Source: a virus. From it: a stretch of DNA of 43,649 nt. The position numbers are program-made. The stretch is taken from IMG/VR virus record IMGVR_UViG_3300011742_000001, positions 1 to 43,649 of that record; one strand, written 5' to 3'. This document shows, in pieces, positions 6,001 to 9,000 of the stretch; position 1 is the first letter of the stretch, and each line of letters starts with the position of its first letter.

Positions 6001-9000
6001 CTGGCGTAGTCGAGTGCGTAGCACGCTGACTCCAAGTCAGGCACTCACCCCTAACCCCACCCAAACACACAGCCTGCCGGCGAGAGTCGGCGGGGAGGAG
6101 TTCTGCGCCATGAGCCTGGACGTTTCGCTTTATGACGACGAAGACCGATGCCTGTACGACGCCAACATCACCCACAACCTGAACACAATGGCTGGCGAGG
6201 CTGGCATCTATGAACACCTATGGCGCCCGGATGAAATCGGCGTGACTAAGGCAAGTCAGCTGATTGAGCCTTTGCGCGCCGGGCTGGCTCAGCTAGTCGA
6301 GAGGCCGACCCACTTTGAACAGTTCAACTCGCCGAACGGCTGGGGGCTTTACGTCCACTTCGTACCGTTCGTGGCGCGCTATCTCGAGGCGTGCATTGCC
6401 AACCCAGACGCCGACGTGCGGACCTGCCGATAGGAGATAGACATGCAGCACACAGACAAGGCGATAGCAGAGTTCGAGGCGTGGTGGGACAGGCAGCCTC
6501 ACAGCGAGCAGTTCGAGGATTTGAAGCAGCAGTTCTGCAGCGTGGCGGTGGCGTTCTATGAAAAGGCGCTAGCTGATTCAGTGAAGCTGGATGGTATTGA
6601 AAGCGTCCATCACCAGCTCGGCATGGTGTGCCTGAACTTCAATACCACTGAGCAGACTCGGGATTTTGCACGGGCGTGCCGCGCAGTGATAGCAGCCGGC
6701 GTAACGGTGAGGGGGTGAGAGATGGGCGCAGAGAAACTCGAGAATCTGCCGGAGTGGTTCCCTGACAAGGTGACCGAACAGCAGATGGCCATGATACTTG
6801 GCACAACCGATCGAGCCCTAGAAGGCAGGCGAAGCCGGAACCAGATTCCCGAGGGCGTCTGGAATCGCATCAATGGACGAATCTACTACAGCCGATCAAG
6901 GTACGAAGAATGGCAAGAAAGCCTATGGCACTGCCCACCGGAGTTGAGCTACGCAACGATACGATCCGCATCCGATTCAGCTGGAACGGGAAGCGATGTT
7001 CAGAAACCCTCGCCCTCCCCCCGACGCAAGCGGGCATTGCCGCTGCATCCCGTCTACGCGATCAAGTAGTCCAGCAGATCAAGCACGGCATCTTCGACGA
7101 GCGGAAGTATGCCGAGCTCTTCCCCGGCTCGCCGAACGCTATTTCCAGCGTCTCGCGCGGGTTCGGGCAGTACGCCCAGGTCTGGCTCGACAGTCGATCG
7201 ATATCAGAAGGGACGCGCGACAACTACAAGTCGGTGCTCAATATCTGGTGGATGCCTTATCTCGCAACAACCCCCCTCCCCAATCTGACGACCGCCTTCA
7301 TGCGCGAGCTCGTCGTCCAGATCCCATGGACCTCGGACGGCGTTAAGGCGAACGCCATGAACAAGCTGAGCACCATTCTTGAGTCGGCGGTTTCGGACAG
7401 GTTGATTGCGGAGAACCCGATCCAGGCGCTGGATATACCAACGCGGACGGAAGCGAAGGTTGACCCGTTCACGCAGGATGAGGCGGACAGGATAATTGCC
7501 AGGCTCTACGAAACGGAGCACTGGCCCAGCCAGATATACGCGGCCTTCTTTGAGTTCGCTTTCTACACCGGAATGCGGCTAGGAGAGATCGCCGCCCTTC
7601 GCTGGGAAGAGGTCGATCTGAAGAGGCGTACGGTCCACGTCTGCAGGTCCGTAGCGAAGAAGAAGGTCGTCGAGCGGACGAAGACCAAGAAGGATAGGTT
7701 TGTGCTTCTGAATGACCGGGCCGTTCATGCCCTTTTGTTCGCCAAGCAGTACGCCGAGCGGCGCGCGTCCGGCAGCGGCCGACTGACCGATTTCCCGTTT
7801 TGCTTCCCGCCCAGCAAGAGCTCACAGTTCATTCAGCAGACGAGTGACCTGCATCATCAGTGGCGCCCGACGCTGAAGGCGCTGGGTATTCGCTACCGAC
7901 CTCCGTACAATGCGCGCCACACCTACGCAACCATGTGCCTGATGGCCGGAATGACACCGGCATTCATCGCCAAGCAGCTCGGCCATTCGATACAGATTTT
8001 GCTGTCTCGGTATGCCCGCTGGATCGACGGCGAAGGCGATTGGGCCGAGATGCGCAAATTACAGTTTGCCCCAAAAGTGCCCCAAGCGTAGCACCACACC
8101 TCTGAAACCCGCGAGATAAAGCCTCTTGATTTCTACCGCAAACATCACCATGCAGTTCTAATGGGGGTTTTGGCGGGGTAAGCTCCACGTATTTACTGGG
8201 CTGCAAGCCCTCACAGGCCCACGAAAAACCATACTCTGCCCCAAAAATTGCCCCAAGATTTGACCCATCTCAGCCCGTCCGGGCAACCTCAATTCCCCTC
8301 CAAAAAAACTATTTCAATCTTTCGCTTGCGTAGGAACAATGTTCCGCTTATAGTTAACCCATGCCAGCCACAACGGCGAGGCGACCCAAGGAGAGACACC
8401 ATGAAAACTGCACAAGACATCATCGACCTGATCAAAGAAGCCGGCGCTGAAGATGCGCAGGCAATCCGCGCCACACTGGAAGACGGCGCTTCCCTGCTGG
8501 CCCTCGGCATCACCGACGAAGATCAGGAGGCTGTAGAGCTGGCCCACGACCTTATCAGCCATGAAGCCTGACGCCTCTCAACACAACCCAGACCCGCGCT
8601 ACCTGCGCGGGTTGCTGGATAGCGCCGGACTGACTCAGCGTCAAGCGGCGCAGTTGATGGGTATCAGTGATCGCGTAATGCGCTACTACCTGAGCGATGA
8701 GGTGAGCGCGACGTTCAGGCCGGCACCCTACCCTGTTCAGTTTGCGCTGGAGTGCCTAGCCCAAACCTGATCCGGTACGCCTCACGCTCTGCCGAGGTCA
8801 TGAACTCCCAGGCGAAGTCCTCGCCTTTCGGCCCGCCTTTGCACTGGTTGTACCGATACCAGCCGCCCACGCGCAGCCCGGAGTACATCAGGTTCCGCTT
8901 GATGACTCCAACGCCGAGGATTTCCAGCATCTCGCGGAATAGCTCGTCGGCTTCGGCGCGGCTGACCTGCTGAGAGCAATAAATCCAATCGTGCACGACG

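Follow-up and report, generated by a model that had tools for sequence, protein, structure and literature searches.

A 56-residue candidate anti-defence protein in an Aca1-regulated operon of a temperate phage

What does a 56-amino-acid protein do when its gene is the only companion of an Aca1-type regulator? The question is raised by IMG/VR virus record IMGVR_UViG_3300011742_000001 (positions 1 to 43,649; hereafter the window, meaning the whole stretch of 43,649 nucleotides that was analysed). In this record two open reading frames (ORFs) of the plus strand, 8401..8571 (56 amino acids) and 8561..8770 (69 amino acids), overlap by 11 nucleotides beside the integrase gene. A preliminary description of the same DNA reported both ORFs, the overlap and the sequence of the smaller protein, all of which we find as given there, and proposed an undescribed anti-defence protein encoded next to a homologue of Aca1. 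Our analysis supports this proposal as a reading of sequence and predicted structure: the region 8326-8770 is likely to be an Aca1-autoregulated operon whose 56-residue cargo is an undescribed anti-defence candidate, probably an anti-CRISPR protein (Acr), and the family to which the cargo belongs is widespread, not a one-off. We favour this reading because members of the family are repeatedly linked to three or four families of regulators, in differing genetic elements and at differing positions, a case that is strengthened by their contacts with sequences like AcrVA2 and AcrIC5. Repeated association with regulator families across elements is the signature by which most known Acr families were identified. 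The regulatory half of the operon is in all its details already known, and the cargo family appears to be new within a recognised class.

The regulator and its control region

The 69-residue protein (8561..8770, plus strand) was assigned to the helix-turn-helix (HTH) autorepressors of the Aca1 family on the basis of PDB, PHROG and DNA-level matches. A phmmer search of the PDB aligned its residues 2-68 with Aca1 of phage JBD30 (PDB 7c0g and 7fa3) at E = 3e-30, with 47 of the 67 aligned residues identical (about 70%), and phrog_3865 was matched at E = 1.6e-37. The 5' part of the gene also matched aca1 of DMS3, JBD24, PaMx73 and others at the level of DNA. The residues by which JBD30 Aca1 contacts DNA, as listed in PMC8633003, are R22, Q32, R33, S42, R44, V45, R47, Y48, Y49 and R59; all are identical in the window protein, whose numbering is that of JBD30 minus 6, and S31 of JBD30 is replaced by threonine. 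Judged by these alignments the protein is a true Aca1, as had been proposed from three sequence blocks. Two of the blocks, SDRVMRYYLS and RPAPY.VQFALECLA, are present as quoted, and the other reads NPDPRYLRGLL, not DPDPRYLRGLL.

The putative promoter of the operon consists of a -35 hexamer, TTGCGT (8326..8331, plus strand), and a -10 hexamer, TATAGT (8349..8354, plus strand), separated by 17 nucleotides. The first is the positional counterpart of TTGCGA in DMS3 and of TTGCGC in one of the homologous loci (which we designate by L numbers), L019, and the second occurs unchanged in L001 and L008. This architecture, with a palindrome inside the spacer, had been recognised in the preliminary description and is present; its characterisation there as near-consensus did not hold, since the -35 hexamer agrees with TTGACA at three of six positions and a consensus scan reported no promoter at the acr-aca1 control region under a rule of at least 4/6 matches per hexamer. 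Agreement of the -10 hexamer with TATAAT is 5/6. The acr promoter of DMS3 and JBD30 is TTGCGA-17-TAATCT, with the inverted repeat IR2 in its spacer, and the window element is positionally homologous to it.

The palindrome GGAACA-A-TGTTCC (GGAACAATGTTCC; 8333..8345, arranged 6+1+6) is the equivalent of JBD30 IR2 and is found once in the 43.6-kb window. It differs from IR2 of DMS3 and JBD30, GGCACAATGTGCC, only at the third position of the half-site (C6 and its symmetric partner). In the published complex the Aca1 half-site is GGCAC, of which G4 is read by R47, G5 by R44, A7 by V45 and Y48, and C8 by R59, while C6 receives only a weak contact from Tyr48; R22, Q32, R33, S42 and Y49 contact the backbone (PMC8633003). 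The window operator thus retains the specifically read G4, G5, A7 and C8 as well as the AAT spacer. A hybrid operator, GGAACAATGTGCC, in which a GGAAC half-site is paired with a GGCAC half-site, is present in L019 (~3735-3750) and L024 (~3865-3880); these hybrids show that the third half-site position drifts freely and are natural evidence that Aca1 does not discriminate it. Autorepression by Aca1 through the palindrome is well founded as a reading of the sequence, because the contact residues are conserved and the operator departs from IR2 only at C6. The natural GGAAC operator and the GGAAC/GGCAC hybrids also put to the test the published view that Aca1 reads the third half-site base only weakly. 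The window control region has one operator only, the upstream second repeat (IR1) being absent from it. According to a survey of Aca-regulated operons (PMC13551039), a second Aca1 site is found in only about 40% of acr-aca1 operons.

The leader of 40 nucleotides that follows (ATGCCAGCCACAACGGCGAGGCG...AAGGAG) is almost unchanged in DMS3, BUCT566, L001, L019 and L024. It ends in a Shine-Dalgarno sequence, AAGGAG (8388..8393, plus strand), that lies 7 nucleotides 5' of the ATG and is kept in the homologous leaders. Within the 5' untranslated region, positions 8363..8382 (plus strand) are predicted to form a two-tier hairpin of the form GCC.GCC-ACAAC-GGC..GGC (-9.6 kcal/mol), which is conserved in DMS3, BUCT566, L001 and L024 and is preserved by compensatory changes in the diverged operon of L008. 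The RNA motif bound by Aca1, as described in PMC13551039, comprises a lower stem of 3 base pairs, at most two unpaired bases and a covarying upper stem of 3 base pairs, and its 3' end lies about 20 nucleotides before the acr start codon. The window hairpin fits this description. It is therefore an already published element and not a new feature, and because it matches the motif the window holds the complete published acr-aca1 control region.

The junction between the two genes is conserved to the same degree. The cargo ORF and aca1 overlap by 11 nucleotides, ATGAAGCCTGA, a sequence shared without change by the window, L001, DMS3, BUCT566 and L024. The preliminary description had noted that the cargo ends in His-Glu-Ala and had ascribed all three residues to the overlap. 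This stands for -Glu-Ala-stop, which the overlap forces, and does not for the preceding residue, which is encoded by xAT: it is histidine in the window and aspartate in both AcrIE3 of DMS3 and the AcrIF2-like protein of BUCT566, which end in -D-E-A.

The 56-residue protein

Is the ORF at 8401..8571 (plus strand) a gene, and if so has its product been described before? It is the sole gene besides aca1 in the window operon, and its 56-residue product (5.9 kDa) carries a net charge of -11 (7 D + 7 E - 2 K - 1 R), in agreement with the earlier estimate. Pairwise ratios of nonsynonymous to synonymous substitution rates (dN/dS) against L001, L008 and L019 range from 0.08 to 0.32, indicating purifying selection. 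AlphaFold2, supplied with the family alignment, predicted a four-helix bundle (helices 4-13, 19-26, 29-34 and 39-53) with a predicted local distance difference test score (pLDDT) of 95.6 and a predicted template modelling score (pTM) of 0.80. Together with the Shine-Dalgarno site and the large size of the family, the dN/dS values and the confidently predicted fold rule out the possibility that the ORF is not a gene.

The protein had been described as unlike AcrIF1-5, AcrIF7, AcrIE1-7 and other Acr sequences, and searches bore this out, with no named Acr or curated family matched. PHROGs, NCBIfam and Pfam, where Acr families such as AcrIC5 are represented, gave no family match; no Acr was among the matches of a PDB sequence search, and none of the annotated phage genes matched the protein. 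Searches by tblastn of 50,697 phage records and of 72,556 plasmids each returned one weak Aeromonas match. At the level of structure, Foldseek against the PDB found no structural neighbour of the model (best E 2.7, a SAM-like fold with a TM-score of about 0.48), and against BFVD the sole good match was another uncharacterised member of the family, with no Acr returned. A word-indexed search returned 19 close clusters of the family, none of them named. Motifs of the family were not found in the searchable full texts of the literature, nor in the sequence-bearing supplements of Pinilla-Redondo 2020 and Gussow 2020. They were likewise not found in the Leon 2021 supplement, a weak negative as tested aca1-linked candidates are listed there by accession only; a close relative among these NCBI-accessioned candidates is nevertheless unlikely, because none of the 19 close homologues comes from NCBI. 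AcrIF25 and AcrIF26 have been described with beta structure, and the 56-residue protein is all-helical. The protein thus matches no named Acr among those compared, and the cargo family appears to be undescribed.

Two apparent relationships were also considered. Residues 6-41 resemble one 33-residue repeat of the TALE-like protein BurrH (DI[IV]..I...G...AQA[IL].A.LE.G..L...G), and the summed phmmer E-value against BurrH (PDB 4cja) was 5e-5. Every single repeat had an independent E-value above 100, however, and BurrH was not returned by Foldseek, so we regard this as probably a compositional or helical coincidence; DNA binding by the 56-residue protein is in addition argued against by its net charge. 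Homology with AcrIC5 was rejected, since there was no match to PF22147 at E <= 1 and none to 7yhr; it is only the fusion partner of the family domain in one member, P0088, that matches AcrIC5.

Family breadth, genomic company and proposed function

At a threshold of E <= 1e-3, an exhaustive profile search extended the family to 295 representatives, each standing for a cluster at 50% identity; 86 of them reached E <= 1e-10, and in every source the members are annotated as 'hypothetical protein'. Domain layout, assessed for 145 representatives, is varied: the domain stands alone in 64, lies N-terminal to variable extra sequence in 61, C-terminal in 11 and internally in nine. Conservation is highest mainly at glycines in turns, at helix caps and at hydrophobic residues of the core.

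By our own tally, a DNA-binding regulator adjoins the family gene, or is fused to it, in 13 of 17 distinct contexts; the case from guilt by association is strong. In five contexts (the window, L001-5, L006-9/L020, L019 and L024) the partner is Aca1, encoded 3' of the family gene, and these differ in phage background and in position within the genome. The family gene of L001-L005 lies after the lysis cassette as the sole operon gene besides aca1, while that of L006-9/L020 lies before the holin gene, together with an Aca1 of 55% identity and an extra ORF of 62 amino acids. Homologues of Aca10, again encoded 3' of the family gene, are the partners in two further contexts: the regulator of L010 matches PDB 7XI5, which is Aca10, the controller of acrIC7-acrIC6, at E = 9e-17, and that of L021 is 48% identical to it. 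Another HTH gene lies 3' of the family gene in an Edwardsiella piscicida prophage, where the genes make up an island on the opposite strand between the terminase and lysis genes. Two contexts are plasmid-like elements, in which the family gene stands among genes for polyvalent proteins (LPD3, DarA_N, LPD1) and ParM-like proteins, and in two of the 17 contexts no partner regulator was recognisable.

Regulators of ribbon-helix-helix (RHH) type accompany the family in the remaining five contexts (L011-14, L018, L023, L028-30 and L033). A Pfam/PHROG Arc protein is the partner only in the marine contigs L028-30; in L011-14, L023 and L033 the assignment rests on a pattern-defined module (HLRVPAATK..W.R.SRAAG.RLTDWI), and in L018 on a different sequence pattern. 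The module, of about 35 residues (HLRVPAATKxRWxRxSRAAGxRLTDWI), was observed in L021 (4203-4637), L023 (1797-2243), L011 (1788-1905) and L033 (3501-3620). It is fused ahead of the family domain in P0013, in L033 and in about eight clusters of 95-97 amino acids, and it heads the next gene in L023 and L021. It can be aligned with an Arc protein; Pfam and PHROG returned no match for it, and a profile-level RHH assignment was not obtained. The module may be an undescribed regulator of Aca type.

Fusion of the family domain behind RHH-like or HTH modules (P0013, P0052, P0074, P0166 and L033) brings in a further explanation, namely that the protein is antitoxin-like or a partner of a regulator, and the locus a toxin-antitoxin or transcription-control module. 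A DNA-binding module N-terminal to an acidic domain does resemble the layout of type II antitoxins, and the antitoxins HigA and MqsA have structures similar to those of Aca1 and Aca10. However, no toxin candidate exists in or beside the window operon, the regulator there is a true Aca1 with a full acr-aca1 control region, and the large gene adjoining the RHH-fused form encodes an AcrVA2 homologue and not a known toxin. We therefore reject the toxin-antitoxin reading for the window, where no toxin candidate is present, and regard this explanation as a whole as highly improbable.

The company of the family includes further sequences of Acr type. In L011-13 a homologue of AcrVA2 (PDB 7ci1, E = 3.4e-12) lies directly 3' of the RHH-fused family gene, and P0088 carries, behind the family domain, a domain like AcrIC5 (PDB 7yhr, E = 4.7e-5; Pfam 25.1 bits, just below the gathering score of 27 bits). 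Other neighbours and partners are of their own interest. An ORF of 62 amino acids (MIRPSKQKAQQ...VGFIVRSYN) is the first operon gene in L019 (3802-3990), L006 (3803-3991) and L008 (403-591); it has no match in Pfam, NCBIfam, PHROG or the PDB and is a candidate for a second acr. The family domain is also fused in frame to unrelated C-terminal domains in L019 (4001-4366), L024 (3890-4294) and L023 (1423-1809). The domain in L019 has 69 amino acids and looks beta-rich, while L023 and L024 share a 'GGWVW' C-terminal domain together with an insertion in the first helices; none of the three partner domains matched Pfam, NCBIfam, PHROG or the PDB.

Several observations weigh against an anti-CRISPR function of the cargo. 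The 56-residue protein has no sequence or fold similarity to any validated Acr compared, and the family spans distant Proteobacteria and is broader than most Acr families. Frequent fusion to highly variable extra domains, in about 45% of the representatives, means that the conserved domain might be a shared accessory module. Most RHH assignments are made by sequence pattern alone, the AcrIC5-like domain of P0088 scores slightly under its Pfam threshold, and genes regulated by Aca proteins include some with functions other than that of an Acr, as reported in PMC13551039. The breadth, the frequent variable fusions and the mainly structural character of the conserved positions allow for a non-CRISPR target or an accessory role.

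The first of these, that the cargo is an anti-defence protein directed at something other than CRISPR-Cas, such as restriction-modification, abortive infection, a signalling system or a conserved factor of the host, is in our view a minority possibility that deserves some weight. The breadth of the family may point to such a non-CRISPR or more general target: members occur in Pseudomonas-type phages, the Edwardsiella prophage, marine contigs and plasmid-like elements, in the last case among genes for polyvalent proteins, and the core of the family is strongly conserved, unlike those of Acr families, which are typically narrow. Aca-regulated operons, according to PMC13551039, also encode diverse anti-defence candidates that are not Acrs. 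Against this, all of the specific named neighbours and fusion partners (Aca1, Aca10, the AcrVA2 homologue and the AcrIC5-like domain) are CRISPR-related, and no neighbour of known non-CRISPR anti-defence function was seen in the contexts examined.

An accessory role, in which the domain of about 55 residues would serve in oligomerisation, as an adaptor, for stability or in interaction with a regulator, and the standalone form of the window would be auxiliary or regulatory, appears improbable to us. The 61 representatives in which the domain precedes unrelated variable regions, another 20 in which it is C-terminal or internal, the lack of any family common to the fusion partners and the repeated fusion directly behind DNA-binding-like modules would suit such a role, as would a conservation pattern of turn glycines, helix caps and hydrophobic core of the kind expected in a scaffold. 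The 64 standalone representatives do not, and in the window and L001-L005 the family gene is the only one besides aca1, where an Aca1 operon lacking an effector would make little sense. Fusion is moreover no argument against inhibitor activity, AcrIE4-F7 being a double Acr.

Returning to the favoured reading of an Aca1-controlled anti-defence gene, the following course of events can be proposed. Upon infection, the promoter TTGCGT-17-TATAGT would fire and yield a bicistronic mRNA, whose first cistron (8401-8571) would supply the acidic four-helix protein as the functional cargo. This protein would bind an immune effector of the host stoichiometrically and block it, the most likely target being the surveillance complex of a type I CRISPR-Cas system or its nuclease. 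A positively charged nucleic-acid-binding surface would be the probable place of binding; the charge of the protein makes such a site plausible, and other small acidic Acrs occupy surfaces of this kind. The second, translationally coupled cistron would supply Aca1, and as Aca1 dimers accumulate they would bind GGAACAATGTTCC and the hairpin of the 5' untranslated region and so silence the operon. In this scheme the inhibition of a defence system by the cargo, the identity of that system and the mode of binding are inferred.

A bolder and rather doubtful variant is that the ~55-residue domain is a widespread, hitherto unrecognised modular 'handle' of counter-defence proteins of mobile elements, which would engage a conserved immune or housekeeping hub of the host. 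Under the same doubtful proposal the domain would act alone or would deliver or organise variable C-terminal inhibitors, and would often be wired to its own RHH or HTH repressor. If so, it would represent a broad-host-range family of anti-defence domains and not one more narrow-spectrum Acr. Should the 56-residue protein prove to inhibit CRISPR-Cas or another defence, it would add a new family of very small inhibitors to the CRISPR off-switches, and its fold, for which Foldseek found no structural neighbour in the PDB, would be part of that novelty. A breadth unusual for an Acr (295 clusters, several regulator partners and Acr-like fusions) may indicate a conserved target or several target systems.

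Phage setting and comparison with known systems

The setting of the locus is that of a temperate, siphovirus-like phage of Pseudomonas type, with integrase, lysozyme, tail and tape-measure genes. A tyrosine integrase (6910..8091, plus strand) was identified by Pfam Phage_integrase (E = 9.8e-21) and Arm-DNA-bind_2 (E = 1.1e-17). The motif TGCCCCAAR occurs four times in the 43.6-kb window, in every case within 8067-8257, at or after the end of the integrase gene. These copies form two tandem pairs (8067-8086 and 8237-8257) flanking about 150 bp, and to judge from their arrangement they are probably integrase arm-type sites that bracket the core of a probable attP region (8067..8257, plus strand). 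The location that had been given for the operon, with attP on one side and the 3' end of the late genes on the other, agrees with these repeats and with the minus-strand lysis and tail genes, which end at 8715.

The genes that follow downstream are on the minus strand: a DUF1353 gene, an endolysin gene and genes for a protein with a GDSL domain, a gpJ-like tail protein and a 1027-residue probable tape-measure protein, the last called by size only. The DUF1353 gene (8715-9209, minus strand) converges on aca1 and shares 56 nucleotides with its 3' end, and at the equivalent place in BUCT566 there is a convergent overlap of 43 nucleotides (L016, 2005-2047). These overlaps suggest that the C-terminal end of the neighbour was remodelled when the acr-aca1 cassette was inserted. 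A homing-endonuclease gene with HNH_3 and NUMOD4 domains (9795-10430, plus strand) is situated between the complete endolysin gene (9348-9809, minus strand) and an ORF of 53 amino acids (10400-10561, minus strand) whose N-terminal part repeats the N-terminus of the endolysin (15 of 24 residues identical). The region 9348-10561 has the appearance of a site where a homing endonuclease gene was inserted and the 5' end of the endolysin gene was partly duplicated or replaced. The 547-residue protein that adjoins the gpJ-like tail protein (10561-12204, minus strand) has a C-terminal GDSL/SGNH esterase domain and may be a tail-associated deacetylase or esterase. A tRNA-Gln gene (anticodon TTG; 20040-20122, plus strand) lies within the otherwise minus-strand late region.

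Among described systems, the acrIF1-aca1 operon of JBD30 and the acrIE3-aca1 operon of DMS3 resemble the window most fully in regulation, with an operator inside a 17-nucleotide spacer, an Aca1-binding hairpin, the 11-nucleotide ATGAAGCCTGA overlap and an Aca1 that is about 70% identical to that of the window and has all DNA-contact residues in common. They differ in having the half-site GGCAC in place of GGAAC, in possessing IR1 and in their cargo, the window protein being unrelated to any Acr of those phages. The acr loci of Pseudomonas aeruginosa Mu-like phages are also situated in the head module, whereas that of the window is flanked by attP and the lysis genes. For this latter position the acrIF2-aca1 operon of BUCT566 (MW748993) sets a precedent, since it stands in the same order of integrase, acr-aca1, convergent gene and lytic enzyme. 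The leader of BUCT566 is 92% identical to that of the window, the junction is the same and the convergent gene again overlaps the 3' end of aca1; its operator is different and less symmetric, and its cargo, annotated as AcrF2 (97 amino acids), is unrelated to the 56-residue protein.

AcrIC5 (PDB 7YHR; PF22147), an inhibitor of type I-C systems, is of similar size (a chain of 60 residues) and is likewise encoded 5' of aca1, but it has no sequence match to the window protein and 7yhr was not returned by Foldseek against the PDB. Composite Acrs offer a parallel to the fused members of the family: AcrIE4-F7 is a fusion of two independent Acrs, and Acr-Aca fusions such as AcrIF24 and AcrIIA1 are known. 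AcrIF24 has a dual function, according to the title of PMC9638941. The family likewise includes fusions to a second Acr-like domain (P0088) and to RHH-like or HTH modules, whereas the window copy is unfused and has a separate Aca1, and no sequence relationship with these proteins was found. A match in kind is provided by the 450 genes regulated by Aca1 or Aca2 that were surveyed in PMC13551039 (Nucleic Acids Research (NAR) 2026). In that study fewer than half of these genes have an assigned function, a figure that limits the surprise of a further case for specialists, and the unannotated clusters are flagged as anti-defence candidates. No mention of the domain fusions or of the linkage to several Aca families was met in its text. 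The 56-residue family fits that class of unannotated candidates.

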